This document shows positions 12,695 to 60,132 of a DNA stretch of 64,000 bases, piece after piece; the stretch's first letter is position 1; the number at the start of each line of letters is the position of its first letter. Under the pieces are notes generated by a model. The model had not been told where the DNA came from and searched no databases. It was given only the letters and a program-made list of their open reading frames with translations. The stretch comes from Candidatus Omnitrophota bacterium (GTDB lineage Bacteria; Omnitrophota; Gorgyraeia; Gygaellales; Profunditerraquicolaceae). A program made the translations under genes and the position numbers. Where the stretch lies: positions 7,173 to 71,172 of the forward strand of contig JAQTQJ010000003.1 of the NCBI GenBank assembly GCA_028712255.1, in the 5' to 3' direction.

Positions 12695-12979
12695 TTAGCC
12701 CTCTTGCTCTATAGACTTAAAATTATAGCCGCATTCTTTGCAGCGGTGATACCTGACCGGCGGATGACTCGCATACCAGCGGATCTTCTTTGATCCGCAT
12801 CTTGGACACCTAAGTGGAATAAACCTGACAGCATAATCATCGCCTGTATTCCCGGGGCGACCGGCGCTTCTTTTTCTAACATCAACATTTCCTGAATGAT
12901 TTTCATTTTTTAACCAATTCTCTTTTCTCTCAAGCCATCGCCCCATCAAAGCCAAGAGCCCTCTCTTTTGCGGATCCAA
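12695..12979 (-). CDS. Small zinc-ribbon protein
   Basis: CPRCGSKK...CKECG. Its start overlaps the 3' end of the large terminase gene. Confidence 0.3.
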   Translation of the reverse strand: MDPQKRGLLALMGRWLERKENWLKNENHSGNVDVRKRSAGRPGNTGDDYAVRFIPLRCPRCGSKKIRWYASHPPVRYHRCKECGYNFKSIEQEG

Positions 12980-15391: not shown

Positions 15392-16691
15392 TACTATTTT
15401 CTCTATGCGCCTTTCTCCCCGAAAATTCTTCCCATCTTTTGACGGCCACGTCGCAAAAGATAGGCTCGATCTCCATTGCATAACAGCGCCTAGTTAACCG
15501 TTCTGCTGCAATGATCTGCGAACCGGAACCGCTGAACGGCTCGTAGCAGATATCTCCGGGTGACGTATGCACGCGCATAGGAATAGCAAATACCTCGGTA
15601 GGCTTAACCGTTGGATGATGCAGTCCGGGATTACGTTTCTTACCTTCCCAGTCCAGCTCCCAAACATCAGTATGATATTCAGGCTTCGTAGGATCGCCGG
15701 ACCGAAAGAAATTGACCATCCACACACTGCCGATAGATTTGTCCTTTGGCTTATAAAGCGGCTTTTTTCCTTTAACCCACATAAGAAGACAAGGCTCATG
15801 CCTCCACGAATAAAACGAATACGTTAATACTGCGCAAGGCTTCACCCAAATAATCTGCTGATGGACGAGAACTCCGAGATCATCGCAGATTTCATCAATC
15901 ATGCCTCTTCGTTTTGAGGCATGCCAAAGATAGAGCGCTGTGTTTTCTTTGATATGTTTAAGCCCCACCTCATAAAACTTTTTTATGAATTCCTTGGCAT
16001 CCGGAATGTCGACCTCATGATAAACACCGGACCAATCGTGACCGCCGGTAGGCCTATCAGCTCCGGTGTAGTCGACACAGTAAGGCGGATCAGTAGCAAA
16101 CAAACTTGCTTTCTCTCCAGCCATAAGCCTTGCAACATCTTCGTCGCTTGTAGAATCCCCGCAGAGAAGCCGATGATCACCTAATATCCAAAGGTCGCCT
16201 TTTTTAGTAATCGTCTCCTTGGGCGGTTCAGGAATATCATCCGGAAGCGTTTTGCCGTCGCCAATATTCTCAACACCCATGTCGCCAACGCTATCCCGTA
16301 AATTTTTGAGCCGAAGCGCAAGATAATCATCAGCCGCCTCTTTGCGCAGCCTCTCTAAAAGCGGAATAAGAGCCTGTGTCCACTGTCCGGCAATCTCCTG
16401 GTTATTAAGCGTGACATTCATTGCCTGCTCTTGAATTTCGTCAACGTCAACTATGATAGCCGGTGCGGTCTCAACGCCCTCCGCCTGCAAAATCTTATAC
16501 CGCTGATGCCCTGAAATGATATGCATATTGCGCTTATTTACCACCAATAGGTCCACATAGCCAAACTTCTCCAGGCTATGCCGCAGGCCCGCCAAGGCCT
16601 CGTTCGATATTTCCCTCGGATTATAAGGCGCCGGTTTAATTTCCGATATCTTTATGTCACTAATCGCAGGCTTAATATTGATTTTTGCCAC
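15384..16691 (-). CDS. ParB-like nuclease domain fused to a DNA methyltransferase (N6-adenine or N4-cytosine, DPPY motif)
   Basis: N-terminal ParB/Srx fold (ISEIKPAPYNPREIS...GHQRYKIL), a DPPY catalytic motif and a C-terminal FSGSGS SAM-binding motif. Confidence 0.75.
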   Translation of the reverse strand: MAKINIKPAISDIKISEIKPAPYNPREISNEALAGLRHSLEKFGYVDLLVVNKRNMHIISGHQRYKILQAEGVETAPAIIVDVDEIQEQAMNVTLNNQEIAGQWTQALIPLLERLRKEAADDYLALRLKNLRDSVGDMGVENIGDGKTLPDDIPEPPKETITKKGDLWILGDHRLLCGDSTSDEDVARLMAGEKASLFATDPPYCVDYTGADRPTGGHDWSGVYHEVDIPDAKEFIKKFYEVGLKHIKENTALYLWHASKRRGMIDEICDDLGVLVHQQIIWVKPCAVLTYSFYSWRHEPCLLMWVKGKKPLYKPKDKSIGSVWMVNFFRSGDPTKPEYHTDVWELDWEGKKRNPGLHHPTVKPTEVFAIPMRVHTSPGDICYEPFSGSGSQIIAAERLTRRCYAMEIEPIFCDVAVKRWEEFSGRKAHRENSNG

Positions 16692-19652: not shown

Positions 19653-21419
19653 ATGATCATAAAACCTAAGACAGATAAAACAACCAACAAAAAACGATAC
19701 GTTATCTATACGCGCTGCTCCACTGACGACCAGGCCCAGGGAGACTTTACCACCTTGGACAGCCAGGCTTATCACTGCAAGAACTTGCTGGACGCCTTTG
19801 GATACGAGCTCGCCAAGATAGGCAACAAAGGCCGAATAGACGATGACGGATACTCCGGCAAGGATCTCAACCGGCCCGGCATCCAGACGATTATCGACCA
19901 TGTGCGTAAAGAAACTGCCCCTTTTGATGGAATAATCTTCTTCCGCCTTGACCGCCTAACCCGGAATACCCGTGACCTCTACTGGCTTATTGATCTATTC
20001 AACTCCAAAGAGATCTCTTTCGTATCCGTACGCGAGAATCTTGACAGCTCAACCGCCATAGGCAGAGTGGTCATTGGTATACTTGGGATCTTGTCAGCCT
20101 TTGAGCGGGAACTCACCGGCGAGCGTGTGAAAGCCTCTTGCATAGCGCGTGTTCGCCAAGGCAAGTGGGTTGGCGGGATGCTGCCTTATGGATATAAGCT
20201 TATACCAGACGGACAACCTCTGCCTAACGGCCGCCAGCCACACAAGATCGTCCTTGATGAGAAGACATCTCTCCATCTTAAAGCTATCTGGGAGATGGCC
20301 GCAGATAATAAATCGCTTACGCAGGTAGGTCTTGAACTACATAGGCGCGGGCTAAAAACTCTAAACGGCAAGGAATGGCGCAGACAGGTTATCTCAAGGA
20401 TCTTAAAGAATCCCTTCTATAAGGGCTACATCCAGTACAGCGGAGAGTATCATAAAGGCACTCATCCTCCAATTGTAGAGGAGTGGCTCTGGGAAAGGGC
20501 TAATAAGATATTGAATGCAAGACTCCCCGGCCACAACTTTGTGCAGAAGGAAAGATTCTACGAATACCTCCTAGCCGGTATCATTAGATGCGGCGATTGC
20601 GGAAGCCATATGGTCTGCAATTTCTCAGGTGGCCGTGGCCGGAGAAAGTTCTTTTATTATGAATGCAGCCGCTCCAAACAGGCCCTGGGATGCAAGGCTG
20701 CGCGCATCTCAGCAACCACCTTTGACAAAGCCATAATCGATTATTTCAGGCGGGCATCCAAGGACAAAAACATTATCATAAAGGCCCTTGGGGACGCAAT
20801 GCTTGAGTCGCAGGCAAAGCTTAAAAAGATAGAAGCGGATCTTAAAGAAAAGGAAGCCAAACTAAATGGCTTCCGGCACCAGGCCAATAAGCTGCTGGAA
20901 TTGGCCATGGGTAACACAGTAACCAAAGGCTCAACCTATAAAGACAAAATGGCCGAATTGGAAACTGAGATCGTAAAGCTGGAAGACGAAATAGACAAGC
21001 TGCAGGCCCAGAAGAGAGTCACCAGCATAAACGCCTCCTCCGGTGAGCTCGTATACCGTACCATGGGCTTTGCCATCCAGCACCTCGAAGATGCCCCTCC
21101 GGAAGCCCAGAAAAGCCTTATTCAGGCCTTGATTAAGGATATCTATGTCTATAGCGACCGGTTGGTAATCAATATGTATATTGATGAGCCGCTGGAAAGC
21201 ATCCTCCCCACCGAAATAGCCTCTACAAACGAAAAGCGCCCTACAGAAGCCTGTAAGGCGCTTGCATCCACTGTATCGCTACCCGGAGTTTCGGATAGTT
21301 GTCAACAATGGCTGCCCCGCTTGGACTCGAACCAAGATAGTCAGATCCAGAATCTGAAGTCCTACCGATTAGACGACAGGGCAAATGTGTTAGAAAGTAT
21401 ATCGTGGATAAAAAGTTAA
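19653..21419 (+). CDS. Large serine recombinase (phage integrase)
   Basis: N-terminal resolvase catalytic domain (YVIYTRCSTDDQ), a recombinase domain, a zinc-ribbon-like Cys cluster (CGDCGSH...C) and a C-terminal coiled coil. 588 aa. Confidence 0.85.
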   Translation: MIIKPKTDKTTNKKRYVIYTRCSTDDQAQGDFTTLDSQAYHCKNLLDAFGYELAKIGNKGRIDDDGYSGKDLNRPGIQTIIDHVRKETAPFDGIIFFRLDRLTRNTRDLYWLIDLFNSKEISFVSVRENLDSSTAIGRVVIGILGILSAFERELTGERVKASCIARVRQGKWVGGMLPYGYKLIPDGQPLPNGRQPHKIVLDEKTSLHLKAIWEMAADNKSLTQVGLELHRRGLKTLNGKEWRRQVISRILKNPFYKGYIQYSGEYHKGTHPPIVEEWLWERANKILNARLPGHNFVQKERFYEYLLAGIIRCGDCGSHMVCNFSGGRGRRKFFYYECSRSKQALGCKAARISATTFDKAIIDYFRRASKDKNIIIKALGDAMLESQAKLKKIEADLKEKEAKLNGFRHQANKLLELAMGNTVTKGSTYKDKMAELETEIVKLEDEIDKLQAQKRVTSINASSGELVYRTMGFAIQHLEDAPPEAQKSLIQALIKDIYVYSDRLVINMYIDEPLESILPTEIASTNEKRPTEACKALASTVSLPGVSDSCQQWLPRLDSNQDSQIQNLKSYRLDDRANVLESISWIKS

Positions 21420-47652: not shown

Positions 47653-49416
47653 CTATTTATGTTCCTGAATCCGGTTAATTAATTCCTCAATAAATTTATC
47701 TATTGCCACCACGCCCTGCTGGCCGCTTCCTTTTTTACGCACGCTTACCTGTTCCTGTTTTGCTTCACGCTCTCCTATAATTAAAGAATAAGGAGTTTTA
47801 TTTAGCTCGGCTTCGCGGATTTTTTTATCCAGAGTTTCATTACGTGTATCTATCTCCACGCGTATATTATTACTTTCCAACTTATTCTTTACTGTCTGAG
47901 CATAAGGAATAACTGTTTCTTTAATCGGAATTAACAAAACTTGGACTGGACTAAGCCATAAAGGCAACTCTCCCTTGTAATGTTCAATCAGGGCCCCGAT
48001 AAAACGCTCTAAGCTGCCCAACAGCACACGGTGCAGCATAATCGGCTGTTTTTCTTTTCCATCGGCATCAACATAGGCCAAATCAAATCTTTTAGGAAGA
48101 GCAAAATCACATTGGATAGTCGCGCACTGCCAAGTTCTCTTAAGCGCATCTTTTAATTTAATATCAATCTTCGGTCCGTAAAATGCACCATCTCCTTGAT
48201 TAATCTCATAAGATATCCCTCTTTCTTTTAGGGCATCCTCTAGCGCATCTGTGGCCTTTTTCCAGTCATCATCTGAACCGATATATTTTTCCGGACGTGT
48301 ACTTAACTCTACTCCCCACTGATCAAAACCAAAAACCTTCATTGTGTGAAAAACAAAATCAATGATGTTCTTTATTTCATCTCTGAGCTGCTCAGGCAAA
48401 CAAAAAATATGCGCATCATCCTGAGTAAATCCGCGCACACGTAATAACCCGTGCAAGACACCAGCTTTTTCCCGGCGATAAACCGTACCTAGCTCAAAGA
48501 ATCGTATGGGCAAATCTTTATAACTTCTAGTTTTTGATTTATAAATCAAGATATGCCCCGGGCAATTCATCGGTTTTAAAACAAATTCCCCGCCACACTT
48601 CTCGGCGGGCCCGCCAATGTTTTTGGCGGGCTTGCTATCCTCCATGTTGAGGATATACATATTCTCTTTGTAATATTCGTAGTGCCCGCTGGTCTTCCAA
48701 AGCGCAACATCCATAATGTGCGGAGTAATTACGATTTGATAACCACGTTTTAAATGTTCTTTCTTTTCATAATCTTCAATGATTGTGCGCAAAAGCGCCC
48801 CCTTAGGATGATAAAATACTAATCCGGCCCCTGCCTGCTCATGGTAAATATCAAAGAATCCTAATTGAGGGCCTAATTTTCTATGGTCACGTAATTTTGC
48901 TTCCTCTAAATTTTTTAAATACTCATCCAGCTCTTTTTGAGAATTAAAACATGTCCCATAAATTCTCTGAAGCATAGGATTAGTTTCAATCCCATGCCAA
49001 TAGGCACCGGCAACCGATAGTAATTTGAAAACCTTAATCTGGCCGGTAGATTCTATATGTGGGCCGCGGCATAAATCAAGAAAAGAGGTACCAGTTTTAT
49101 AAATAGAAACTTTTTCCTGCGCTAAATCCTGAATAAGCGAAACCTTATAATCCTCTTTTAATTTTTTAAATAACTCAATTGCTTGGGCCTTATCTAATTC
49201 TTCATGCAAGAATGGCTCATTTTTGGCAATAATCTGGCGCATCTTCTTTTCAATCGCCAACAAATCCTCGTCGCTAAATGGTTCTTTTTTGTCAAAATCA
49301 TAGTAAAAGCCGTCCTCAATAGAAGGGCCTATGCCTAATTTAACTTCCGGCCATAATTGTTTTACAGCTTCAGCCATAATGTGCGAACAGGAATGTCTTA
49401 GTGTATTTAAGTCCAT
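47653..49416 (-). CDS. thrS: Threonyl-tRNA synthetase
   Basis: HxxxH editing-domain motif and class II core. It heads the conserved thrS-infC-rpmI-rplT cluster. Confidence 0.9.
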   Translation of the reverse strand: MDLNTLRHSCSHIMAEAVKQLWPEVKLGIGPSIEDGFYYDFDKKEPFSDEDLLAIEKKMRQIIAKNEPFLHEELDKAQAIELFKKLKEDYKVSLIQDLAQEKVSIYKTGTSFLDLCRGPHIESTGQIKVFKLLSVAGAYWHGIETNPMLQRIYGTCFNSQKELDEYLKNLEEAKLRDHRKLGPQLGFFDIYHEQAGAGLVFYHPKGALLRTIIEDYEKKEHLKRGYQIVITPHIMDVALWKTSGHYEYYKENMYILNMEDSKPAKNIGGPAEKCGGEFVLKPMNCPGHILIYKSKTRSYKDLPIRFFELGTVYRREKAGVLHGLLRVRGFTQDDAHIFCLPEQLRDEIKNIIDFVFHTMKVFGFDQWGVELSTRPEKYIGSDDDWKKATDALEDALKERGISYEINQGDGAFYGPKIDIKLKDALKRTWQCATIQCDFALPKRFDLAYVDADGKEKQPIMLHRVLLGSLERFIGALIEHYKGELPLWLSPVQVLLIPIKETVIPYAQTVKNKLESNNIRVEIDTRNETLDKKIREAELNKTPYSLIIGEREAKQEQVSVRKKGSGQQGVVAIDKFIEELINRIQEHK

Positions 49417-49422
49417 TTGTCT

Positions 49423-50232
49423 TTATTTAAGGTGAAATATATCCACGCGCATATCGTCGGAAATTTTGGGCGCAGGCGAAGCAGAGCCGAATTCAATATG
49501 AAACTTCGCTGTTTTATCTTGCGCCCCTAGTAATTTGAGAGTTCCGGTCTGCTCTAAGCCACCGGTAACAAAGCTTACCCCTTCTTCAATAGCCAATTTT
49601 TGTTCCGCTTCGTAGTCTTCAGTGGTAATCAAAACTTCTGCGCTATTTGCAGACAAAGATAAAAGCTTAATTTGAATAGTTCCTATTTCTCCTTCTATTA
49701 TATTTACACCCTGTCCTAATTCCAGATCAAAACTTCCTTGCTTGCCTCGAAATGAAAAATTGGGCTGCTCAAATTCCGTATATTTATAGAGCGTAGTAAT
49801 CTTGATTGCTTCCCGCTGGCCTAAGTCTTCGTATACATCTTTAGGAGCAGACTTTAAATATCTTCCGAAATAAAGGTTTGATAAAATATATGGCCCGTTC
49901 ATTTTGTCTTTGAAAATTTTGTACCCATCAAAGTGAAGAGTAACGATGTTTACGCCTTTTTTTAAATCAAGATTATATTTATTATATACTTGATAAGGAT
50001 GGCCTTCTTTAGACTTAAGGTCAGTTTCGCTTATCAAGAATCCTCTTATAAGATATTGATTGCCATCCACAGGCACATTCAATTCTACATCAATGTCTAG
50101 CTCATCCGCCTTGCCATCAGCATCTGAATCAACTTTATAATCCTTAAAGGAGCCGGTAAATACTTCAGCGGCCTCTAAGCGTGTAACCGCGGTCATAAGT
50201 GATATTATAAAGATTAGGTAGCTTACTTTCAT
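49423..50232 (-). CDS. Hypothetical secreted protein
   Basis: The signal peptide begins at MKVSYLIF. The ORF-track start at 50283 would overlap tRNA-Val. Confidence 0.35.
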   Translation of the reverse strand: MKVSYLIFIISLMTAVTRLEAAEVFTGSFKDYKVDSDADGKADELDIDVELNVPVDGNQYLIRGFLISETDLKSKEGHPYQVYNKYNLDLKKGVNIVTLHFDGYKIFKDKMNGPYILSNLYFGRYLKSAPKDVYEDLGQREAIKITTLYKYTEFEQPNFSFRGKQGSFDLELGQGVNIIEGEIGTIQIKLLSLSANSAEVLITTEDYEAEQKLAIEEGVSFVTGGLEQTGTLKLLGAQDKTAKFHIEFGSASPAPKISDDMRVDIFHLK

Positions 50233-50238
50233 TTTTAT

Positions 50239-50315
50239 TGGTGGGCCCAGGAGGATTTGAACCCCCGGCCTTTTCCATGTCAAGGAAACGCTCTAACCAA
50301 CTGAGCTATGAGCCC
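50239..50315 (-). tRNA. tRNA-Val (GAC) with encoded CCA
   Basis: Cloverleaf read by hand: acceptor gggctca/tgggccc, anticodon loop ttGACat, T-loop ttcaaat and a 3' ACCA. Confidence 0.8.
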
Positions 50316-50574
50316 GTCACTGCGCTGTTGCTTATTCTAAGCTTTTCGAAATATCTATGCTACTTTTGTATCTATTACTCCTGCCGCATTCTAATGACGC
50401 TTCGTTCCTTAGGAGGGGGCAAGCCCCCCTCCTAACGCTTATAGTCTAATACAATGAGACGCTGGTCTCCCCCAACCGCGGGGAAATTCTTTCCCCGCAC
50501 CCCTTGAGGTTTTTAACAGCATTTATTTTTACCACTAACGATATCCGCCAAAGGCGGATAGCTGTTAAAAACCT
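50316..50574 (-). other. Structured non-coding region with three strong hairpins (candidate small RNA or regulatory region)
   Basis: A 13-bp stem ggtttttaacagc...gctgttaaaaacc enclosing a nested atccgcctttggcggat, then gcggggaaagaatttccccgc, then aggagggggcttgccccctcct. No ORF and no T-run. Confidence 0.3.
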
Positions 50575-51000
50575 TCAGCTCTTATTCCTTACCAAAAAAC
50601 TAAGACTTCTTTCATCTATGGAAGTCCTTTTACCCCACAAATCTTTCCTCATCGCACTTACTACTTTTATGTATGACGAATAATCTGGATTACTAATAAA
50701 ATTCGCCATTTTCTTAATAACATCATCACTAGCGAATAAAATACTATTCAGCAATTCTGCTTCAACCTCATTCTTAAAATCTTGTATATTTTTTAAATCA
50801 GGTCTAAATTCTGACGCGTGACGCAATCCATTTTCCGGATCCAGAATTGTTAACATCTGGATAATTATAGATAAATATCTTTTACTTTTTAATTCATGTT
50901 CTTGTTCTTTTAGCTGCTTTTTCCGCTCGAATAGTGATTGAAAATATGCTCCCGATATTCCCGCTAATAAAGCAACTATAATCTGTGATAAGTTTGACAT
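50575..51000 (-). CDS. Hypothetical membrane protein
   Basis: N-terminal TM helix. 141 aa, AT-rich. Confidence 0.3.
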   Translation of the reverse strand: MSNLSQIIVALLAGISGAYFQSLFERKKQLKEQEHELKSKRYLSIIIQMLTILDPENGLRHASEFRPDLKNIQDFKNEVEAELLNSILFASDDVIKKMANFISNPDYSSYIKVVSAMRKDLWGKRTSIDERSLSFLVRNKS

Positions 51001-51081
51001 TTCATTAATTATAGACTATAGATCTATACTATAAATTAAACTGGACAGGAAGAAGCCGAATTCTTTCTACCCTTTAATAAA

Positions 51082-51165
51082 TGCCGGGGGAGGGAATCGA
51101 ACCCTCATATCCTTACGGACGGCGGATTTTAAGTCCGCATCGTATACCAATTTCGACACCCCGGC
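51082..51165 (-). tRNA. tRNA-Leu (TAA), type II with long variable arm
   Basis: Acceptor gccgggg/ccccggc, anticodon loop ctTAAaa, a 15-nt variable arm and T-arm gaggg-ttcgatt-ccctc. Confidence 0.75.
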
Positions 51166-51174
51166 AAAATCATT

Positions 51175-51834
51175 TTAATTAAGAATCGTTTTGCTTTTGC
51201 TCCAACCGTAATCTGAACCCAAACATTCATTAGCCAATTTTATTTTTCTTTCTAACCCAAAACAACCTTTATAATAACAGCATTCAGCAATTTTTCTAGC
51301 GGCCATTTTACCATATTTTAATACCCGGGTATTAGCTGCATTCTTATGTCTTTTACCGCAAACTTTTAATAATCGCTCTACTTTATTATCCAGCCAAGCC
51401 ATAAACTCTGCAGAGCCAGAATAAATCCTTAAACTCCATTGTTCTCTCTTATTAGTCGGATGTATCCAATGACGAATACAACCATCGCCATCAATAACAC
51501 CTCTTAAAAAATCAGGAAAATATTGCCTTGGTATTTTTATCGCACCCAGCGTCAATGATTTTTTTGGCGTAAGCCCGACAGATAACAAAAATTCATAAAA
51601 ACTTATATTCGCAATTTGCAAATGGTAAGATTGATTAATCCTACCTTTATTTTTCACGCCTATCTTATTCACTAAACTAAAACCCGATTTAATCTTCTCT
51701 AAAAACTCTGCGTCTTTTGAGGTTATATCAATATGTCTGCCATCTCTTGATAAACAGCCATCACTGGTAATCAAACCAACTAAATACCAAAGATTTGCTC
51801 CTTCAATTTTTAATTCTTTTCTGTGTGCTAGCAT
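51175..51834 (-). CDS. Free-standing LAGLIDADG homing endonuclease (two-motif, monomeric type)
   Basis: Two LAGLIDADG motifs, LVGLITSDGCL and LRGVIDGDGCI, separated by ~95 aa. 219 aa. Lies between tRNA-Leu and tRNA-Cys. Confidence 0.75.
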   Translation of the reverse strand: MLAHRKELKIEGANLWYLVGLITSDGCLSRDGRHIDITSKDAEFLEKIKSGFSLVNKIGVKNKGRINQSYHLQIANISFYEFLLSVGLTPKKSLTLGAIKIPRQYFPDFLRGVIDGDGCIRHWIHPTNKREQWSLRIYSGSAEFMAWLDNKVERLLKVCGKRHKNAANTRVLKYGKMAARKIAECCYYKGCFGLERKIKLANECLGSDYGWSKSKTILN

Positions 51835-51852
51835 CTTTCAAAAAAGTTTTAA

Positions 51853-51923
51853 GGCGACGAGCGGATTCGAACCGCTGAATAGTTCTTTTGCAGAGAACTG
51901 CCTTACCACTTGGCTACGTCGCC
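51853..51923 (-). tRNA. tRNA-Cys (GCA)
   Basis: Acceptor ggcgacg/cgtcgcc, anticodon loop ctGCAaa and T-arm agcgg-ttcgaat-ccgct. No CCA encoded. Confidence 0.8.
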
Positions 51924-51928
51924 AAAAA

Positions 51929-52474
51929 CTATAATATATTTTTTACCTGCCTTACGATTTCTTCAGTCTCTGCTAAACAACCTATCCCCACTGCTCCACA
52001 TGCAAGCAGGCCTCTAGTCGGAGCAATAAATTTATAGCCACAGGATTTTAATTTTGCGATATTGCTTTGAGTAATTTTATTTTTATACATATTCTCATTC
52101 ATTGCCGGTGCGATTAAAACTTTTGACTTGGTTGCACAAACCGTGCAGGTTAAAAGATCGTCACAAATACCACAGGCAAGTTTTGCAATGATATTGGCGG
52201 TTGCCGGGGCAATTAAAATTAAATCCGCTTTTCCTGCCAAAGAGATATGTTCAATCTCCCAGGTTTCCTGCTCTTCGAAAATTCCCCCCCGATAAACGCG
52301 GTTGCCGCTTAAGCTCTGGAAAACAATCGGCTTAATTAATTCTTCTGCCTCTTTAGTCATCACCACGCAAACATTAAATCCGCTTTTTCTAAGCAGGCGT
52401 ACTAAATCACAAGCCTTATAAATAGCAATACTGGCAGTTACGCCTAAAATAATATTCTTTGCAGCTTTGGCCAT
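51929..52474 (-). CDS. coaC: Phosphopantothenoylcysteine decarboxylase flavoprotein (CoaC half only)
   Basis: Flavoprotein fold (ILGVTASIAIYKA). No CoaB domain. Start chosen at MAKAAKN (52474) to avoid overlap with rpoZ. Confidence 0.7.
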   Translation of the reverse strand: MAKAAKNIILGVTASIAIYKACDLVRLLRKSGFNVCVVMTKEAEELIKPIVFQSLSGNRVYRGGIFEEQETWEIEHISLAGKADLILIAPATANIIAKLACGICDDLLTCTVCATKSKVLIAPAMNENMYKNKITQSNIAKLKSCGYKFIAPTRGLLACGAVGIGCLAETEEIVRQVKNIL

Positions 52475-52475
52475 A

Positions 52476-52685
52476 TTACTCTTTTTCCTTTGTTTTCCTG
52501 GCTTCGATCCTGCCAGCTGCGATTTCATGTAAAGCTACAGTAGAAGGCTTTACAGAAGCATCATCTGCAACTAATTTTGGCTGGCCTTCGGCAATCTCCA
52601 AAGCCCTTTTGGATGCCAAAATTACCAATTTATAAATTGACCCCATACTCTTATCTAAAAGTTTTTCCCTTCCCTCATAACCCAT
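52476..52685 (-). CDS. rpoZ: DNA-directed RNA polymerase subunit omega
   Basis: SIYKLVILASKRALEI... 69 aa. Conserved gmk-rpoZ neighbourhood. Confidence 0.75.
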   Translation of the reverse strand: MGYEGREKLLDKSMGSIYKLVILASKRALEIAEGQPKLVADDASVKPSTVALHEIAAGRIEARKTKEKE

Positions 52686-52707
52686 TTTTACCCCCTAAAA
52701 GTAAATG

Positions 52708-53307
52708 TTAAATGCGAATTTCTTGTAAAAATATATCTTTTAATTCTTCGAGTGCAATTTCTAAGTTTTGATTCAAAATACAATAATCGAATCGGCGCGC
52801 AGCTAATAATTCTTTAGCCGCCAGACGTATACGCCAAGCTACTTCTTTTTTATTAGTCTTACTGCAACGGCTTTGGATCCTAGCTTTAAGCACATCAAGC
52901 GAAGGAGGCAAAACAAAAACCCTTACCGTATTCTTAGGATATAATTTCTTAAGAATCGCGGCGCCCTTAAGATCTAAACATAAACCAATATTCTTACCAA
53001 CGTTAATCTGGCTTTCTAATGGCCCCCTAGGCGTTCCGTAATAATAGCCCAAATACCTGGTCCATTCAAGAATTTTTTTTGCCCTTAACAGCTGCCGAAA
53101 CTGATCTTGGGTAACAAAAAAATAGTCCTTACCCTCCTTTTCCCTAGAACGCTTGGGACGGGTGGTAACTGAACATGATTTTACAAGCAGCTTAGCGATT
53201 TTTCTGTCTTTGATTAAACAGCTCAGAAGGGTGGTTTTGCCTGAACCCGAAGGCCCGCAGATAATAAAAATTTTCCCCGGTTTATTTTTTATTTTTTCGG
53301 CTTTCAC
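52708..53307 (-). CDS. gmk: Guanylate kinase
   Basis: P-loop GPSGSGKTT and a guanylate kinase fold. 199 aa. Confidence 0.85.
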   Translation of the reverse strand: MKAEKIKNKPGKIFIICGPSGSGKTTLLSCLIKDRKIAKLLVKSCSVTTRPKRSREKEGKDYFFVTQDQFRQLLRAKKILEWTRYLGYYYGTPRGPLESQINVGKNIGLCLDLKGAAILKKLYPKNTVRVFVLPPSLDVLKARIQSRCSKTNKKEVAWRIRLAAKELLAARRFDYCILNQNLEIALEELKDIFLQEIRI

Positions 53308-54646: not shown

Positions 54647-55504
54647 TTATTTTCCTCCTTTAATAACACCAACTATGCGTTCTAAATCTTCCTGCGAATA
54701 AAATTCGATATTGATATGCCCGCGTTTTTTTCTTTTACTTATCCTGACCTTAGTGGCCAAGGCATGTTGAAGCTGTTCTTCAAGAATTGCCACAAGCGGT
54801 TCACGAGTGCCTTGACCGATACTTCTTTTTATTGAGCTAGGCCGTTTACTTTTTATCAGATTCTCCAGCTCGCGCACCGAGAGCCCCTTGGCAATGGTAT
54901 CCTGCGCAAGCCTTCGCTGTTGGTTCTCGTCCTCAATCTCAAGTAATGCCCTACCGTGTGCAAAACTAATCCGGCCCTTTTTCATCTCCCCCTGAATTTC
55001 ATGAGGAAGTTTAAGCAGGCGTAAAGTGTTAGTAATGGACACTCTTGCTTTACCTAAAACTTCACTGATTTTTTCCTGAGTAACTTGGAATTTATCAATT
55101 AAGTGTTGATAAGCATGCGCTTCTTCAATGGGATTTAATCCTTCCCTCTGGATATTTTCAATCAAAGCTAATTCAAGAGAATCCTGGTCGCTGACCTCTC
55201 TAACAATAACTGGTATCTCTTTTAATCCCAGCAAACTAGAGGCGCGAAATCTTCTTTCTCCGGCAATCAATTCATAATTGTCACCTCTTTGCCTAACCAA
55301 AAGCGGCTGAATAACACCTTTCTCTTTGATTGATTGCGCCAGCTCTTCAATGCTTTGCTGATCAAAATCTTCACGCGGCTGAAAAGGATTAGGTTTTATT
55401 TGTCCAGACTGGACATAAATAATCTCTTCTTTACGTGTTGTAGCATCAACCACCTTCTCAGGTATTAATGCACCCAAACCCTTTCCTAAAGCTCTTCTCT
55501 CCAT
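54647..55504 (-). CDS. parB: Chromosome partitioning protein ParB/Spo0J
   Basis: ParB box GERRFRAS, an HTH and a C-terminal dimerisation region. Start taken at MERRALGKGLGAL (55504). Confidence 0.85.
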   Translation of the reverse strand: MERRALGKGLGALIPEKVVDATTRKEEIIYVQSGQIKPNPFQPREDFDQQSIEELAQSIKEKGVIQPLLVRQRGDNYELIAGERRFRASSLLGLKEIPVIVREVSDQDSLELALIENIQREGLNPIEEAHAYQHLIDKFQVTQEKISEVLGKARVSITNTLRLLKLPHEIQGEMKKGRISFAHGRALLEIEDENQQRRLAQDTIAKGLSVRELENLIKSKRPSSIKRSIGQGTREPLVAILEEQLQHALATKVRISKRKKRGHINIEFYSQEDLERIVGVIKGGK

Positions 55505-55517
55505 TAAGCAGCTCCTT

Positions 55518-55567
55518 CCCATAAGGGAACACCGGCGCAATTCAAATAAACGCCGGGTGTAACTTAT
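55518..55567 (-). promoter_or_regulatory. Conserved hairpin-plus-RBS leader element, copy 2 (upstream of parB)
   Basis: cccataagggaacaccggcgcaattcaaataaacgccgggtgtaacttat. Same architecture as 46813-46863, with compensatory stem changes. Confidence 0.5.
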
Positions 55568-56328
55568 ATTTGTAAGCCTAAAATTTCTCTGCTCAACTCT
55601 TCATATTTCTGAGCGCCTAAAGAGTCTTTATCATACAAGGCAATCGGCTTACCAAAACTCGGTGCTTCGGTTAAACGAATATTTCTAGGAATTACTGTAT
55701 TATAGACTTTATCCTTAAAGTGATTGCGCGCTTCCTGAATAACTTCTTTAGTAAGATTGGTGCGAAAATCTGCCATAGTTAAAAGCACGCCTTCAACACT
55801 TAGGGTAGGATTAAGGTTTTCTTTTACAAGTCTAACTGTATTATGAAGTTGCGTCAAGCCTTCTAAGGCATAATATTCACATTGGACAGGAATTATTACT
55901 GAATCAGAAGCACATAGCCCATTAATCGTAAGTAATCCTAAGGAAGGCGGAGAATCAATAATCACAAAATCAAAATTTTCTTTTTCAATTTGCAAAGCCC
56001 TTTTTAATCTATACTCACGGCCAAGCGCCCCAACCAGCTCCACCTCTGCACCAGTTAAGTCTAAATTAGAAGGGGCAAGTAAAAGATTATCAATTGCTGT
56101 TTTTTGTAAAATATCGGCGAGCTTTAATTCTTCAAGAAGAATATGGTATGTGCTTTTTTGAATATCATGTTTATTTATTCCAATACCGCTAGTAGCATTT
56201 GCTTGAGGATCCAAATCAATGAGCAAAATTTTCTTCCCTGCCATAGCCAGGTACGCCGCGAGATTAATCGAGGTTGTAGTTTTACCTACCCCGCCTTTCT
56301 GGTTACAGATTGCGATTATTTTACCCAT
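55564..56328 (-). CDS. parA: Chromosome partitioning ATPase ParA/Soj
   Basis: Deviant Walker A KGGVGKTT. 254 aa. Confidence 0.9.
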   Translation of the reverse strand: MGKIIAICNQKGGVGKTTTSINLAAYLAMAGKKILLIDLDPQANATSGIGINKHDIQKSTYHILLEELKLADILQKTAIDNLLLAPSNLDLTGAEVELVGALGREYRLKRALQIEKENFDFVIIDSPPSLGLLTINGLCASDSVIIPVQCEYYALEGLTQLHNTVRLVKENLNPTLSVEGVLLTMADFRTNLTKEVIQEARNHFKDKVYNTVIPRNIRLTEAPSFGKPIALYDKDSLGAQKYEELSREILGLQI

Positions 56329-56409
56329 TGATATTATTATGGTTACGTAAGGTTCCCCGAGAAACGTACCTTTTTAACTAAATTAATTATCTCAAAACTA
56401 AAATACTTG

Positions 56410-56610
56410 TCAAGTATTTTCTTTGTTAGAAATTACGCTTACACGTACCTTTGCTGGCTTAGCTCCGGGCATACCAAAAAGCCCCTTTTTCTCCTCGACT
56501 ACACTTTCTATTTTTACACGGTTGCGCGGGAGTTTTAATTCTTGCAAGGCCTTTTCAATGGCCTCTTCCACAGTCTTCCCTTCAACTTCAATATATTTTA
56601 CTTTTTTCAC
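56410..56610 (-). CDS. Jag/KhpB N-terminal-domain-only protein
   Basis: 66 aa with a YIEVEGKTVEEAIEKALQELKL...VKIES...GLFGMPGAKPAKVRV pattern (Jag_N). No KH or R3H domains. Sits in the usual position after yidC. Confidence 0.5.
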   Translation of the reverse strand: MKKVKYIEVEGKTVEEAIEKALQELKLPRNRVKIESVVEEKKGLFGMPGAKPAKVRVSVISNKENT

Positions 56611-58184
56611 TTTTGACTATTAATTTTTACTTGATAACTCAACATCAATATGCTATTTACAAACCAATAAAGTACCAATCCCGACGGCATTTGGTAAAAA
56701 ATAACTCCAAACATGATCGGCATAATGATCATCATTATTTTTTGTTGTTGAGCAGCGTCACCAGTTGCTTTACCCATAGAAATCTTTTGCTGAACAAACA
56801 TGCCAATAGCCATCAAAATTGGTAAAATATTTAATTGGTTGCCTAACAACGGTATTGAATTTTTAAAAACAAAAAGCTTGTCCGGAGAAGACAAATCCTT
56901 AATCCACCAGAAATGCGCTCCTCTTAAATCTACTGAACGAATTAACGCCTGATAAAGCGCAAAAAATATAGGCATCTGCAATAAAAGTGGCAAACACCCG
57001 CTAAGCGGGTTAACCTTGTGCTCTTTATATAGCTCCATGATTTCTTTATTTAATCTTTGTGGATTATCTTTAAACTCCTTACGTAGAGCTTCGATTTTAG
57101 GCTGTAAGATCTGCATCTCTTTCATGGAGCGCATTTGTTTAATCGATAGGGGAAATAATAGAAAATAGACTGCAATGCTTAAGATAATTATGGCCAAGCC
57201 CCAATTATGAACTAGGCCATAGAAAAATCCAAGAAGTTGTAAAAGAAGCTGAGCAATAAAATCAAACATCCCAAAATATATAATAGGTGTCCATTCTGGT
57301 TTAATGCTGTTTAGCAGCTTAAGATCCTGTGGGCCTAAAAATATGCGATATAAATGTCCAATCTGAGCTCCAGGTTTTAAATTCTCATCATTATAAAAAA
57401 TACCCACTTCTGATTCTTGCGAATTAATTTTTTTAACATAACCGCTAGAGGTAAAATTAACGGGCTCAACAATAGCGCAAAAATACTGATCACGCAGCCC
57501 AATAAACTTCACGTCTGGAGCACTAAAATCTTTACCCGCTCCGAGGTGTAAGGTTTTTTCCTTGCCTCCCAGCAAAACGTCCTGATATCGTGCTTGGGAA
57601 TTTTTAGCCGACAAATCTAATCTTCCTAAAACTAATTGAGGTTTTTGCAACAATAGAGGAGAGGATGATAAATTTTGGGTCTTAATCTCTAACTCTATGA
57701 CATAACTATTGTTAGGAATAGTGAACTTCTTGACAATACGCTTATCTTGATCTTCATGGACAAAACTGATGGTATCTTTAGTTATATTTTGCTGTTTAAA
57801 AACAAGGCCTTCGTCACTAAGAAAACCAATTTTAAGCGGTAGACGGTGCTCAATGTTATTTTTAAAAATTACCTCTAAAATAGCGGCCCTATTTGGATTA
57901 AAAATAATTTCTCGACTATCTTGAGTAAATTTAACAGTCTCTTTCACCTCATTGGCGTCCGCAGATAATGGAGCGACGCCTGATGGAGACAAGGTTGTCC
58001 CTGTAGCTACTGAAGTCTGCAATTGAGCATTTATCGCATTAACTCCTTTATTATCAACTAGTTGCGGCTTATGGCTTTGGCCAAAGGAAGCCAAACCATT
58101 GCCTTCCGGCTTAGGAGTTAGAGCTGACCAGCTCAGTAATACTAATAAAGATAAGGCAATGGCTAGAACTAAACGTTTTTCCAT
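56607..58184 (-). CDS. yidC: Membrane protein insertase YidC
   Basis: N-terminal TM helix, a large periplasmic domain and a C-terminal 5-TM core. 525 aa. Confidence 0.85.
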   Translation of the reverse strand: MEKRLVLAIALSLLVLLSWSALTPKPEGNGLASFGQSHKPQLVDNKGVNAINAQLQTSVATGTTLSPSGVAPLSADANEVKETVKFTQDSREIIFNPNRAAILEVIFKNNIEHRLPLKIGFLSDEGLVFKQQNITKDTISFVHEDQDKRIVKKFTIPNNSYVIELEIKTQNLSSSPLLLQKPQLVLGRLDLSAKNSQARYQDVLLGGKEKTLHLGAGKDFSAPDVKFIGLRDQYFCAIVEPVNFTSSGYVKKINSQESEVGIFYNDENLKPGAQIGHLYRIFLGPQDLKLLNSIKPEWTPIIYFGMFDFIAQLLLQLLGFFYGLVHNWGLAIIILSIAVYFLLFPLSIKQMRSMKEMQILQPKIEALRKEFKDNPQRLNKEIMELYKEHKVNPLSGCLPLLLQMPIFFALYQALIRSVDLRGAHFWWIKDLSSPDKLFVFKNSIPLLGNQLNILPILMAIGMFVQQKISMGKATGDAAQQQKIMMIIMPIMFGVIFYQMPSGLVLYWFVNSILMLSYQVKINSQK

Positions 58185-58190
58185 AGAATT

Positions 58191-58415
58191 TTATATTAAG
58201 GGATCATACCCTGAGCGCCGAGAAAAAGGATGGCAGCGCAATAACCTGGCTAACCCCTTACATACTCCTCTTATTATTCCGTATTTTAAAATTGCCTGCT
58301 TAGTATAATCAGAACAGCTTGGTTCAAACCGGCAACATAGCGGCAAAACCGGCCTTAAAAATTTTTGATAGCCTGCTATTAAGGCGATTGAAAAATTTCT
58401 TAGCTTTAAATACAA
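58191..58415 (-). CDS. yidD: Membrane protein insertion efficiency factor YidD
   Basis: [10 protein letters not shown]...RCHPF..GYDP signature. Apparent TTG start overlaps the rpmH stop. Confidence 0.8.
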
Positions 58416-58543
58416 AGCCTTTTCCTGCCTTTGCTCCGTCGGCGCGCTAAAAGCTTTCTACCGGATTTAGAAGCCATTTTACTACGAAAACCATGGCGCT
58501 TTTTACCGACAATGTTTGTAGGTGTCTTTAAATTTTTCTTCAT
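58406..58543 (-). CDS. rpmH: 50S ribosomal protein L34
   Basis: [45 protein letters not shown]. Not in the ORF track, presumably because it is short. Read by hand. Confidence 0.85.
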
Positions 58544-58624
58544 CTTTACCGCTCCTTTAGATTGTTAAATACTTTCGAATTTTGTGAATTGTAACATACA
58601 TTTATTGCAAGGTCAAGTTTTTTA

Positions 58625-58702
58625 TTGACGCCCAAGCATATTGTTGTATAATAACTAACGTTTAACTTTTTTACTTGCAAGGATTTTGGTCTCTGTTATA
58701 AT
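58625..58702 (+). promoter_or_regulatory. Two tandem sigma-70-type promoters upstream of dnaA
   Basis: P1 is TTGACG(58625)-17nt-TATAAT(58647-58652). P2 is TTGCAA(58675)-16nt-TATAAT(58697-58702). Confidence 0.55.
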
Positions 58703-58733
58703 AGCTTTGTTTAAAAAATTTGCAGTAACTATT

Positions 58734-58764
58734 TTATCCACAGATTTATGCAAGTTGTGTATAA
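58734..58764 (+). promoter_or_regulatory. DnaA boxes in an oriC-like region upstream of dnaA
   Basis: Perfect TTATCCACA at 58734-58742 and a one-mismatch box TGTGTATAA at 58756-58764. AT-rich surroundings. Confidence 0.55.
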
Positions 58765-58797
58765 GCTGTTAACTCTGTAGATACGGTTATAAAAACC

Positions 58798-60132
58798 ATG
58801 GTTGAGCTTATTAAGAATTGGGAAGAAGCACAGGTAGATTTAAAGACAAGGATGGGCGATACTATCTTTGCTACCTGGATAGCTCCGCTGAAGTTTTTAC
58901 CTCAAGATAACCACAGTATAAATCTTGAGGCTCCAGACCAATTTTTCAAAGACTGGGTAGAAAAACATTATCTTGAACTTATTCGGGATACCTTAAAACG
59001 TAAGGGCGTGGATAATCTGTTAGTAAAGTTAGTTGTCAGCACCGCTCAAAGCGATTTATCTATTCCTTCTAACAATGAAATCAGTATCAAGAACGCTCCA
59101 TCTGCTAGTTGTATCAATCTTAATTCGCGTTATACATTTGAAAATTTTGTTATCGGGGCTTCCAATAGGCATGCGCACGCCTATTCTTTAGCTGTAGCCA
59201 ACTCACCGGCTAAAACATATAATCCATTATTCATTTATGGAGGAGTGGGGCTGGGAAAGACCCATTTGATCCAAGCTATCTGCCATCAAATAAAAAACAA
59301 TAACCCAACGGGAATAAAAATATGCTATGTTTCGAGTGAAAAATTTACCAACGAGCTTATCGACGCTATAGCGCATCGTTCTACTAATGCTTTTCGCCAA
59401 AAATACCGCAACCTCGATGTCCTTGTTATTGATGATATTCACTTTATCGCAGGAAAAGAATCTACTCAAGAGGAGTTTTTCCACACCTTCAATACTTTAT
59501 ATGATGCTCACAAACAAATTGTATTCTCCTCAGATCGGCCGCCTAAAGAAATTACCAACCTACAGGAACGGCTGATTTCACGGTTTGGGTGGGGCCTGGC
59601 TACAGATGTCCAGCCCCCAGATCTAGAAACACGCGTGGCAATCCTAAAGAAGAAAATTGAACGTGAACCCGTCACGGTTCCCGATGATGTAATATTTTTT
59701 ATCGCTCAATTAATTAAAACCAATATTCGCGAACTAGAAGGCGCCTTAATCAGAACGATTGCCTATTCTTTGCTAGAGGAAGCTCCGGTTACCTTACAAT
59801 TAACTAAAGAGGTACTGAAAGACCTGCTCAAAGAACCTACAAAATTAATTACTGTAGATTTTATCCAACGCTGCGTAGTCGAGGAATTCGGAGTTTCTTT
59901 ACAGGACCTTAAAACAAAAAGACGCAACAAACAAGTTGTGCTTCCACGACAAATTGCTATGTATTTAAGTAGGGAATTAACGGATTTATCTCTCCCGGAA
60001 ATCGGAGAACTTTTTGGTGGCAAAGATCACACTACAGTTTTACACTCTTACAATAAAATCAAGGAAGAGATTATCCAAAACCCGGAGCTAAAAGGAAGGG
60101 TTGAAAAAGTTATTCAAGTTGTTAAACAGTAA
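58798..60132 (+). CDS. dnaA: Chromosomal replication initiator DnaA
   Basis: AAA+ Walker A GGVGLGKTHL, sensor motifs and a C-terminal DNA-binding domain. 444 aa. Confidence 0.95.
   Translation: MVELIKNWEEAQVDLKTRMGDTIFATWIAPLKFLPQDNHSINLEAPDQFFKDWVEKHYLELIRDTLKRKGVDNLLVKLVVSTAQSDLSIPSNNEISIKNAPSASCINLNSRYTFENFVIGASNRHAHAYSLAVANSPAKTYNPLFIYGGVGLGKTHLIQAICHQIKNNNPTGIKICYVSSEKFTNELIDAIAHRSTNAFRQKYRNLDVLVIDDIHFIAGKESTQEEFFHTFNTLYDAHKQIVFSSDRPPKEITNLQERLISRFGWGLATDVQPPDLETRVAILKKKIEREPVTVPDDVIFFIAQLIKTNIRELEGALIRTIAYSLLEEAPVTLQLTKEVLKDLLKEPTKLITVDFIQRCVVEEFGVSLQDLKTKRRNKQVVLPRQIAMYLSRELTDLSLPEIGELFGGKDHTTVLHSYNKIKEEIIQNPELKGRVEKVIQVVKQ

Follow-up and report, generated by a model that had tools for sequence, protein, structure and literature searches.

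How can a homing endonuclease gene (HEG) persist in a cellular chromosome with neither an intron nor an intein around it? The question is raised by one locus in the stretch of 64,000 nucleotides (nt) of a Candidatus Omnitrophota genome analysed herein (the window), where an open reading frame (ORF) of 219 amino acids (aa) carrying two LAGLIDADG motifs stands alone between intact genes for tRNA-Leu(UAA) and tRNA-Cys(GCA), an arrangement described in a first-pass annotation of the DNA and borne out by both ARAGORN and Rfam. LAGLIDADG homing endonucleases are site-specific enzymes that cleave both strands of a target of about 20 base pairs and leave 4-nt 3' overhangs. Homing endonucleases are usually thought to need the refuge of an intron or intein, and the free-standing ones are known mainly from phages.

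The comparative evidence assembled here indicates that the ORF is very probably an active or recently active mobile homing endonuclease gene docked at tRNA-Leu, and that a variable part of the tRNA gene may be replaced when the nuclease gene arrives. The element is of a known type and not new biology; its interest lies in the niche that it occupies in the 5' leader of a tRNA gene, in the breadth of its family and in the visible turnover of an essential tRNA gene.

The gene and its product

Both LAGLIDADG motifs were confirmed in place (Table 1), and neither lacks its catalytic acidic residue: D25 and D117 are present and are invariant in 88 of 88 aligned relatives, distant ones included. The protein matches Pfam LAGLIDADG_3 (expect value, E, 1e-8) and PHROG 4645 (E 9.5e-29), and its top sequence match in the PDB is I-Tsp061I (2dch, E 9e-6), with whose D-G motifs D25 and D117 align. 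The AlphaFold2 (AF2) model (predicted local distance difference test, pLDDT, 84; predicted template modelling score, pTM, 0.84) displays the order helix-strand-strand-helix-strand-strand-helix twice, that is, a double alpha-beta-beta-alpha-beta-beta-alpha fold, in which no extra domain or helix-turn-helix (HTH) was found. Foldseek with this model again gave 2dch as the best match (E 2.6e-12, template modelling score 0.69-0.73), and of its 132 PDB matches at E<=1e-3 the top 50 listed are LAGLIDADG-fold proteins throughout. No NCBIfam family was matched by any of the three local ORFs, the 219-aa ORF included. On this ground, the ORF is very probably a functional free-standing LAGLIDADG homing endonuclease gene, for which cleavage activity is predicted from the fold and the conserved residues.

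The AT-rich patch noticed in the first-pass annotation is real but mild, as the gene has a GC content of 0.339 and a third-position GC content (GC3) of 0.26, and the flanking genes have values of 0.38-0.40 and 0.36-0.40, respectively. A phage origin was considered and set aside, since viral contigs in IMG/VR hold no relative and the phage homologues in INPHARED are distant, being only 25-28% identical and annotated as intron-encoded endonucleases.

Docking at the 5' edge of tRNA-Leu

The homologue search returned 798 proteins, the best 120 of which are almost all 218-225 aa long and 60-75% identical to the window protein; the source-named proteins among these 120 belong nearly all to Candidatus Omnitrophota. 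A profile search gave about 15,000 hits. On three long contigs the gene order is parA-parB-ndk-yicC-gmk-rpoZ-coaC-tRNA-Cys-ORF-tRNA-Leu(UAA)-tRNA-Val-thrS-infC, and a scan of species-representative genomes gave 267 loci, 80 of which were kept, about 60 of them of the Omnitrophota type with the same tRNA flanks. The average identity with the window protein is about 60%, a level matched by CoaC and RpoZ and not reached by Gmk and YicC.

Taken by themselves, about 800 homologues of constant length and 60-75% identity in the synteny coaC - tRNA-Cys - ORF - tRNA-Leu - tRNA-Val - thrS, together with an identity level equal to that of ordinary host proteins, would favour a domesticated host factor, namely a vertically inherited LAGLIDADG-derived protein with a tRNA-Leu-linked job such as operon regulation, maturase or RNA chaperone activity. 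Domesticated LAGLIDADG folds also have a precedent in WhiA (3hyi, Foldseek rank 5; PMC3984707). The first-pass annotation had set a conserved housekeeping gene against its own reading, and the homologue matches seem to present exactly that, an appearance that fails once sites are sampled independently of the ORF, as described in the next section. The protein itself also speaks against domestication, in that both catalytic Asp are invariant, unlike in WhiA, the model has no additional HTH and NCBIfam holds no equivalog.

The geometry of the insertion is conserved far beyond the Omnitrophota. Relatives at 39-46% identity were found in metagenome-assembled genomes (MAGs) of Yanofskybacteria, Saccharibacteria, Paceibacterota, Margulisiibacteriota and 'Deltaproteobacteria', where the upstream neighbours differ and a tRNA-Leu gene follows immediately downstream on the same strand, its anticodon being tag, gag or cag, not taa. 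Of 81 non-redundant loci, 78 have a tRNA-Leu on the same strand that the ORF either approaches to within 25 nt or enters: the distance from stop codon to tRNA is 0-11 nt in 51 and 12-25 nt in five, and in the other 22 the ORF runs on into the tRNA. Among the three exceptions are L068, which is frameshifted, and L084, with a premature end of its reading frame. The tRNA-Leu genes at the 81 loci have the anticodons taa (68), tag (6), gag (6) and cag (1). One genome holds two copies, before tRNA-Leu(tag) and tRNA-Leu(gag) (L078, L085), from which it follows that the ORF has moved between paralogous tRNA-Leu genes with its docking geometry kept. The HEG occupies a specific niche, the short stretch of a few nucleotides that immediately precedes a tRNA-Leu gene.

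In the window, the ORF starts 17 nt past tRNA-Cys and its stop codon lies 8-9 nt ahead of tRNA-Leu. The first part of the 17-nt spacer resembles the entire Cys-Leu spacer of empty sites (aaaatttc / ttaaatttttc), and the left junction of the insert can therefore be placed within a few nucleotides of the tRNA-Leu 5' end.

Two side observations concern the tRNA edge. In an Armatimonadota MAG (L075), the nuclease ORF ends at a 67-nt tRNA-like sequence that has an anticodon arm of the Leu(UAG) type and terminates in CCA, but lacks the long variable arm and a normal T-arm, is rejected by ARAGORN and scores 38 bits with Rfam; the nuclease gene may have taken part of a tRNA-Leu along to an ectopic site. 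Meanwhile, the length of 240-260 aa of several database proteins of the family (e.g. P0006) is an annotation artefact of gene callers that ran through the adjacent tRNA, as exemplified by two protein ends that consist of translated tRNA-Cys, '...SAKQLFSGSIPLVAS' at the N-terminus and '...SAKQLFTGSSPVHAS' at the C-terminus.

Occupancy of the site in relatives

Relatives were sampled independently of the nuclease by searching metagenome contigs for CoaC and inspecting what comes after tRNA-Cys, which furnished 62 distinct informative sites whose CoaC and ThrS are 65-84% and 69-87% identical, respectively, to those of the window. The ORF is present at 12 of the 62 sites. A further 38 are empty and carry one conserved 'resident' tRNA-Leu allele (GGGCAAGTGGTGGAATGGCATACACGA...), which lies 6-436 nt past tRNA-Cys, and 12 are empty with a different, non-resident allele. 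The comparison of the tRNA cluster in related genomes that the first-pass annotation had proposed accordingly finds the insert filled at 12 sites and empty at 50. The gene is absent even from the nearest relatives of the window organism (ThrS 84-87% identical), among them L086 and L092 (86-87%), and filled and empty sites are finely interleaved on the ThrS neighbour-joining tree.

Presence and absence on this scale, interleaved on the host tree, rule out the housekeeping reading, and a gene missing from about 80% of close relatives is hardly a domesticated one. Constant length, 60-75% identity and synteny had suggested a housekeeping or domesticated gene, which was rejected on the 50 of 62 empty coaC-anchored sites; domestication is largely refuted by these occupancy data and has become highly improbable.

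Footprints of former occupancy

At least seven of the 12 empty non-resident sites keep a piece of the ORF 3' end against the tRNA. The longest footprint comprises the last 29 codons (L148, hmmsearch E 4.5e-9), followed by the last 12 codons (L135/L136), the last five to eight (L144 and L093) and only '...ttaatta' plus the spacer (L134 and L157). At another empty site (L089), a tRNA-Leu almost identical to that of the window is preceded only by TAATAGATT. The copy of L068 is frameshifted, for which an assembly error is possible. When the long Cys-Leu spacers of empty sites of the resident type were searched for ORF remnants in six frames with hmmsearch, L148 and L135/L136 remained the only significant matches, so the resident-type sites are without sign of past occupancy. 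The footprints and the frameshift correspond to the stages of decay and loss that are expected of a homing endonuclease gene, and deletion footprints again disagree with a domesticated host factor.

Replacement of the adjoining tRNA-Leu

Occupancy goes along with the tRNA-Leu allele. In the unbiased sample, the resident allele is found at 43 empty sites and one filled site; GCCGGGG-type alleles are found at six filled and six empty sites and at four that the script flagged as remnant or partial, three of these four flags having arisen from an ORF of a second nuclease family upstream of tRNA-Cys. The window tRNA-Leu is such a nuclease-linked, non-resident allele, with a GCCGGGG acceptor stem and a TCGA D-stem, and direct reading of its sequence shows A73 to be retained.

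The difference is largely confined to tRNA-Leu. At a matched ThrS distance of about 0.2, tRNA-Leu is 74% identical between filled sites and their nearest empty sites and 94% between empty sites (Mann-Whitney p 7e-12, from pairs that are phylogenetically non-independent), and the corresponding figures are 87% and 91% for tRNA-Cys and 84% and 87% for tRNA-Val. Between the window and L086, tRNA-Cys is 99%, tRNA-Val 95% and tRNA-Leu 67% identical. Between the window and L092, tRNA-Cys is identical at 72 of 72 positions and the insert starts in the short spacer, beside the tRNA-Leu 5' end.

The finest resolution is provided by a sister pair at a ThrS distance of 0.03, one filled (L063) and one empty (L113), whose divergence takes in the ORF and reaches no further than ~57 nt into tRNA-Leu; from the T-arm through 130 nt of downstream spacer the two are 97-99% identical. 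The tract is asymmetric, with the left side unreplaced and most of tRNA-Leu replaced on the right, which is the outcome expected if gene conversion started at a break within the 5' part of tRNA-Leu or shortly past it. As a separate observation on this pair, their tRNA-Val genes differ at about 14 positions, with paired changes in the anticodon and T stems, and the preceding 130-nt spacer differs at about three; tRNA-Val may also undergo allele replacement, and no nuclease gene was seen adjoining it in L063 or L113.

Passive carriage of a non-cutting ORF, moved by ordinary recombination with the conserved flanking tRNAs as homology arms, would draw on the high conservation of tRNA-Cys and tRNA-Leu and on the habit of the tRNA cluster to gather unrelated inserts (the 141-aa and 286-aa ORFs of the window, and spacers of 0.5-1.7 kb in L007, L016, L024 and L041). 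Against it stands the asymmetric tract, in which tRNA-Cys is untouched and tRNA-Leu is replaced, as well as the exact docking that persists in other phyla with an upstream flank other than a tRNA. Passive carriage is rendered very unlikely by these facts, to which the record of selection described below and the confinement of three related nuclease families each to one tRNA type are added.

Most of what separates the HEG-linked alleles from the resident one consists of paired changes in three stems (acceptor, D and anticodon), where 50-80% of loci differ; the anticodon-loop and T-loop positions are unchanged. Since the stem changes are paired, the linked alleles remain plausible tRNAs. The same pattern could be read as collaborative or cleave-and-rescue homing, in which the target would be the anticodon stem-loop, known as an intron-insertion site, and the linked, resistant tRNA would act as the antidote. 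That reading predicts a break in or beyond the anticodon region, and the tract converted in L063/L113 indeed starts with the ORF, takes in the anticodon arm and stops near nt 57; moreover, precedents exist in endonucleases that target intron-insertion sites (PMC3984707) and in SegB, which recognises a conserved tRNA motif (PMC2330249). It is weakened by resident alleles that themselves vary in the anticodon stem and by HEG-bearing alleles that equal the resident one over the first 26 nt. A definition of the target site by allele comparison encounters the same two features, namely differences spread over the acceptor, D and anticodon stems and filled alleles that are resident-like for 26 nt. 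This variant, in which immunity would come from an intron or from stem changes, is considered a possible but rather unlikely explanation.

Horizontal transfer and selection

Pairwise identity of the ORF tracks that of the host ThrS weakly (rho 0.60), and host pairs whose ThrS proteins are 89-91% identical have ORFs only 57-68% identical. In a first quartet, ThrS supports (WIN,L023)|(L006,L021) and the HEG supports (WIN,L006)|(L023,L021), WIN being the window sequence, both at 100% bootstrap; a second quartet is likewise discordant between ThrS and HEG, with bootstrap values of 100% and 99.7%. The synonymous divergence (dS) of the HEG between L021 and L023 is 0.25, that of thrS and coaC on the same contigs being 1.39 and 0.91, respectively, a contrast that indicates recent transfer of the nuclease gene as judged from the substitution counts.

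Among the 24 closest non-identical pairs, the ratio of nonsynonymous to synonymous divergence (dN/dS) of the HEG is 0.06-0.28 where dS is unsaturated; a few CoaC dN/dS values were disregarded as artefacts of wrong tblastn segments. The low ratio and the invariant Asp residues imply that the gene is kept functional while moving, and such values across lineages that exchange the gene are contrary to passive carriage. A dN/dS well below 1 would by itself also suit a domesticated gene, with which the conflict of host and ORF quartets at 100% bootstrap and the low ORF identity of pairs with ~90% identical ThrS do not agree.

The intron question and sister nuclease families

tRNA-Leu(UAA) is the classic bacterial host of group I introns. 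The first-pass annotation had accordingly wondered whether the ORF is a relic that once lay inside a tRNA-Leu(UAA) intron and was left beside the healed tRNA when the ribozyme decayed. Besides the identity of the tRNA, this idea can call upon the closest solved structure and the phage homologues, all of them intron-encoded, and upon two loci at which a tRNA next to a nuclease ORF does carry a group I intron. In L065, the tRNA-Leu(UAA) downstream of a homologous ORF has one (Rfam 76.9 bits, E 3e-19), in which L065 stands alone among about 85 loci, and in L083 a sister LAGLIDADG ORF reads into a tRNA-Phe(GAA) with a group I intron (Rfam 70.5 bits).

The scan for group I remnants that had been proposed was run permissively with Rfam over 49000-53000 of the window and found no signal at E<=10, the same tool detecting the introns of L065 and L083. 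Both tRNAs flanking the ORF are whole, the insertion point lies in the Cys-Leu spacer 5' of the whole tRNA and outside the anticodon loop, and empty sites show a plain Cys-Leu spacer of 6-35 nt. The introns of L065 and L083 are themselves ORF-less, with the nuclease gene outside and upstream of them, and the same upstream docking occurs at tRNA-Leu with four anticodons and at tRNA-Cys. The idea of an intron relic is thereby left scarcely credible. The two loci bear in addition on collaborative homing, which they favour as co-occurrences of nuclease and intron and which they keep open; they are 2 of about 95 copies adjoining an intron, too few to build on.

Other LAGLIDADG families occupy neighbouring tRNA edges. 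A second family, about 30% identical to the first, lies between coaC and tRNA-Cys in L122, L130, L134 and L157 (Table 1), and second LAGLIDADG copies upstream of tRNA-Cys also occur in L049 and L052. The second-family ORF is often without a stop codon and runs into tRNA-Cys(GCA) in both loci examined (L130 and L134). Its homologues at E<=1e-10 number 673, and all five distant members inspected, from Patescibacteria and other MAGs, have the ORF touching or overlapping the 5' end of tRNA-Cys. In alignments of L122, L134 and L157, the second family goes with a distinct tRNA-Cys 3' sequence (...GGTCCACGCC). A third LAGLIDADG kind precedes tRNA-Phe(GAA) in tRNA arrays of Saccharibacteria (L083, L085).

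As a tentative extension, a guild of tRNA-docked LAGLIDADG genes might exist in Omnitrophota, Patescibacteria and neighbouring phyla, with families for the 5' edges of tRNA-Leu, tRNA-Cys and tRNA-Phe, in which tRNA processing would replace splicing, the nuclease would attack the resident copy of the essential tRNA gene and a linked, resistant, functional tRNA would rescue the cell, that is, a natural cleave-and-rescue drive. Were this somewhat doubtful proposal true, the drive would force rapid turnover of a slowly evolving tRNA via compensatory stem changes. In a literature search of limited reach, no account of tRNA-docked LAGLIDADG genes was found.

Proposed homing cycle

The cycle envisaged begins with a double-strand break that the nuclease would make in alleles without the HEG, at a point within or adjoining the 5' two-thirds of tRNA-Leu(UAA); whether the cut falls inside the tRNA itself is rated an even chance. 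The break would be repaired from an HEG-bearing allele that has entered the cell, and the repair would copy the HEG and co-convert a variable adjoining stretch of the tRNA, which would constitute intronless homing. The incoming tRNA allele would be functional and probably cleavage-resistant, and the essential tRNA would be kept. After fixation, the gene would decay or be deleted, leaving a footprint and the imported tRNA allele behind.

As for expression, consensus matches to a promoter or terminator of its own for the ORF are not above shuffle expectation, and the single promoter-like site between tRNA-Cys and the ATG (9/12 match) was treated as uninformative. Since no convincing signals of its own were seen and the ORF lies between tRNAs in a long same-strand row, it is probably co-transcribed with them and would be released from the precursor by tRNA processing, with RNase P cutting at tRNA-Leu +1. 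Processing of this sort would spare the cell any phenotype from the insertion, much like the splicing of introns that carry HEGs, and it is reasonably favoured as what makes the insertion site tolerable.

Several points weigh against intronless homing as outlined here. The support is comparative throughout. The direction of the mosaics is deduced, and replacement of an HEG-linked allele by a resident-type one would look the same. In the filled loci L011, L027/L131, L035, L041 and L044, the first 18-26 nt of tRNA-Leu equal the resident allele, so that neither the acceptor nor the D stem by itself would account for resistance, if any exists. The grouping of HEGs into clades agrees only in part with the tRNA-Leu alleles, the near-identical HEGs of L021, L023 and L024 standing beside three alleles, which implies that the 'cassette' recombines; a strict single cassette of HEG and tRNA was given up for this reason and softened to co-conversion of variable length. 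No relative that might have carried donor DNA into recipients was found on viral contigs. Finally, all data are metagenome assemblies, in which chimeric joins at conserved tRNAs could mimic mosaics in individual contigs; we regard chimeras as a caveat for single loci, the pattern recurring in more than 100 independent contigs from different assemblers, megabase contigs included.

The suggestion of the first-pass annotation that fared best is that of a selfish free-standing nuclease targeting a tRNA gene, which is backed by the insertion polymorphism, the footprints, the tree conflict, purifying selection, the invariant Asp residues and the replacement of tRNA-Leu, with cleavage as its presumed motor.

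The locus and its surroundings

The features discussed are compiled in Table 1. The first-pass annotation had placed a membrane-protein gene beside the nuclease; the 141-aa ORF that it referred to exists, but with no family match or homologue it is a putative gene only. Related loci (tblastn against 165 loci) hold no homologue of this ORF or of the 286-aa one, Pfam and NCBIfam give no significant match to either, and PHROG gives none to the 141-aa ORF; as window-specific ORFs free of homologues in related loci, both were set aside as partners of the element. The 765-nt insert between tRNA-Leu and tRNA-Val is probably a separate accessory insertion. Leu-Val spacing is below 20 nt in about half of the HEG-selected loci and otherwise variable, up to about 1.7 kb, and the long spacers of 0.5-1.7 kb in L007, L016, L024 and L041 suggest that the tRNA cluster is a general hotspot for accessory DNA.

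Elsewhere in the window, a prophage-like block with a GC content of 0.47, the rest of the window having 0.39, contains genes for a lambda-family portal, a terminase large subunit and a ParB-N/DNA methylase, and a large serine recombinase gene whose 3' end overlaps tRNA-Gln(CTG); the block is probably an element integrated at or beside this tRNA. The neighbourhood of the replication origin is marked by parB, parA, yidC and dnaA and by a change in the sign of the GC skew near 59-60 kb; some 7 kb separate dnaA from the endonuclease locus. In the genome with the closest homologue (L001, GCA_030691865), another LAGLIDADG ORF (Pfam LAGLIDADG_1) lies just upstream of parA, and no LAGLIDADG ORF was found at the equivalent place in the window.

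Table 1. Features of the nuclease locus and its surroundings (window positions, unless a locus is named)
Feature	Position	Strand	Remarks
thrS	47653..49416	-	downstream anchor; host marker for trees and distances
286-aa ORF	49423..50283		signal-peptide-like start; second window-specific insert in the tRNA cluster
tRNA-Val(GAC)	50239..50315	-	third member of conserved Cys-Leu-Val cluster; ARAGORN and Rfam
Window-specific insert between tRNA-Leu and tRNA-Val	50316..51080	-	765 nt; holds the 141-aa ORF
141-aa ORF	50575..51000		one N-terminal hydrophobic stretch; GC 0.322
tRNA-Leu(UAA)	51082..51165	-	intact; position by Rfam (ARAGORN/Rfam span 51081/2-51165/6)
Spacer, stop codon to tRNA-Leu	51166..51174	-	9 nt, AATGATTTT; Rfam boundaries
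Probable LAGLIDADG homing endonuclease gene	51175..51834	-	free-standing, monomeric, double-motif; ATG start; 219 aa; GC 0.339
LAGLIDADG motif 2, LRGVIDGDGCI	51475..51507	-	exact translation; catalytic D117
LAGLIDADG motif 1, LVGLITSDGCL	51751..51783	-	exact translation; catalytic D25
Spacer, tRNA-Cys to ATG	51835..51851	-	17 nt, TAAAACTTTTTTGAAAG
tRNA-Cys(GCA)	51852..51923	-	intact upstream flank; ARAGORN and Rfam
coaC-like flavoprotein gene	51929..52528	-	ends 5 nt before tRNA-Cys; nuclease-independent sampling anchor
Prophage-like block	1-21400		
Portal, lambda family	10546-12291		in prophage-like block
Terminase large subunit gpA	12946-14796		in prophage-like block
ParB-N/DNA methylase	15384-16691		in prophage-like block
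Large serine recombinase	19653-21419	+	3' end overlaps tRNA-Gln
tRNA-Gln(CTG)	21309-21383	-	
Replication-origin neighbourhood	54647-60132		parB, parA, yidC, dnaA
dnaA	58798-60132	+	
Second-family ORFs	L122 4588-5333; L130 2744-3508; L134 4559-5311; L157 4580-5295; L166-L170		
Third-kind ORFs before tRNA-Phe(GAA)	L083 3863-4827; L085 2803-3362		tRNA-Phe of L083 with group I intron
Homologous ORF and tRNA-Leu(UAA) with group I intron	L065 391-1440		tRNA downstream of ORF
tRNA-like sequence	L075 2379-2447		67 nt
LAGLIDADG_1 ORF	L001 1-367		upstream of parA

Significance

A large family of this kind resides in cellular chromosomes of uncultivated bacteria, with about 800 homologues of the tRNA-Leu type and about 670 of the tRNA-Cys type, and the 5' leader of a tRNA gene emerges as a safe harbour for a nuclease gene. 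It also illustrates that homologue and synteny evidence can mislead, as the HEG seemed a phylum-wide housekeeping gene until it was sampled independently. Close to such elements, tRNA genes are mosaic and follow a history other than that of the organism, which matters for tRNA-based phylogeny and binning, and the element would explain why the tRNA-Leu(UAA) acceptor stem switches between GGGCAAG and GCCGGGG among near-identical hosts. In practical terms, the family is a source of compact monomeric meganuclease scaffolds (~220 aa) whose natural targets would lie in tRNA genes, as well as of natural triplets of filled, empty and footprint sites for the study of the homing cycle and of nuclease-target co-evolution.

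Comparison with known systems

The nearest precedent for intronless homing is SegB of phage T4 (PMC2330249; review PMC3984707), a free-standing GIY-YIG homing endonuclease in a tRNA gene cluster, whose recognition site holds a T-psi-C stem-loop motif and whose homing carries the nuclease gene and neighbouring tRNA sequence into genomes without them (PMC2330249). Both systems share a free-standing nuclease among tRNA genes, and the localised marker replacement of SegB is the same signature as that described here. SegB, however, is of the GIY-YIG type, belongs to a phage genome and is not docked at any one tRNA 5' edge, whereas the family of the window is of the LAGLIDADG type, resides in a cellular chromosome and either keeps a stop-to-tRNA spacing of 0-11 nt or reads into the tRNA. 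Collaborative homing, in which free-standing endonucleases target intron-insertion sites, has been reviewed (PMC3984707).

Archaeal enzymes of the I-Tsp061I / I-DmoI type resemble the window protein in length (~200-220 aa), in the pseudo-dimeric fold and in both catalytic acidic residues; they differ in being encoded in archaeal rRNA introns and share only about 20% identity with it, whereas the window gene lies outside any intron, beside a tRNA, in bacteria. Another parallel was described in 2024, when LAGLIDADG genes of the candidate phyla radiation (CPR)/Patescibacteria were reported within removable insertions of 16S and 23S rRNA genes (PMC11270868), the text of which mentions neither tRNA nor free-standing copies. 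The two groups have overlapping uncultivated small-celled hosts, the superfamily and homing into very conserved stable-RNA genes in common, but the CPR genes lie inside the RNA gene and those of the window family outside, at the tRNA 5' edge.

WhiA/DUF199 is built on the same LAGLIDADG scaffold (3hyi, Foldseek E 1.1e-8), and one Joint Genome Institute (JGI) record even labels a homologue 'WhiA'. In contrast with the window protein, which keeps both Asp, has no HTH and occurs sporadically, WhiA is a domesticated transcription factor without catalytic acidic residues, with a C-terminal HTH and with the standing of a stable host gene. Integrative elements with tRNA attachment sites, of which the serine-recombinase prophage at tRNA-Gln in the window is an example, likewise take a tRNA gene, a conserved sequence, as their landing pad, and the tRNA is functional afterwards. 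They rely on tyrosine or serine recombinases and usually enter at the tRNA 3' end, whereas the element described here has no recombinase, sits at the tRNA 5' end and is accompanied by mosaics of the gene-conversion type.

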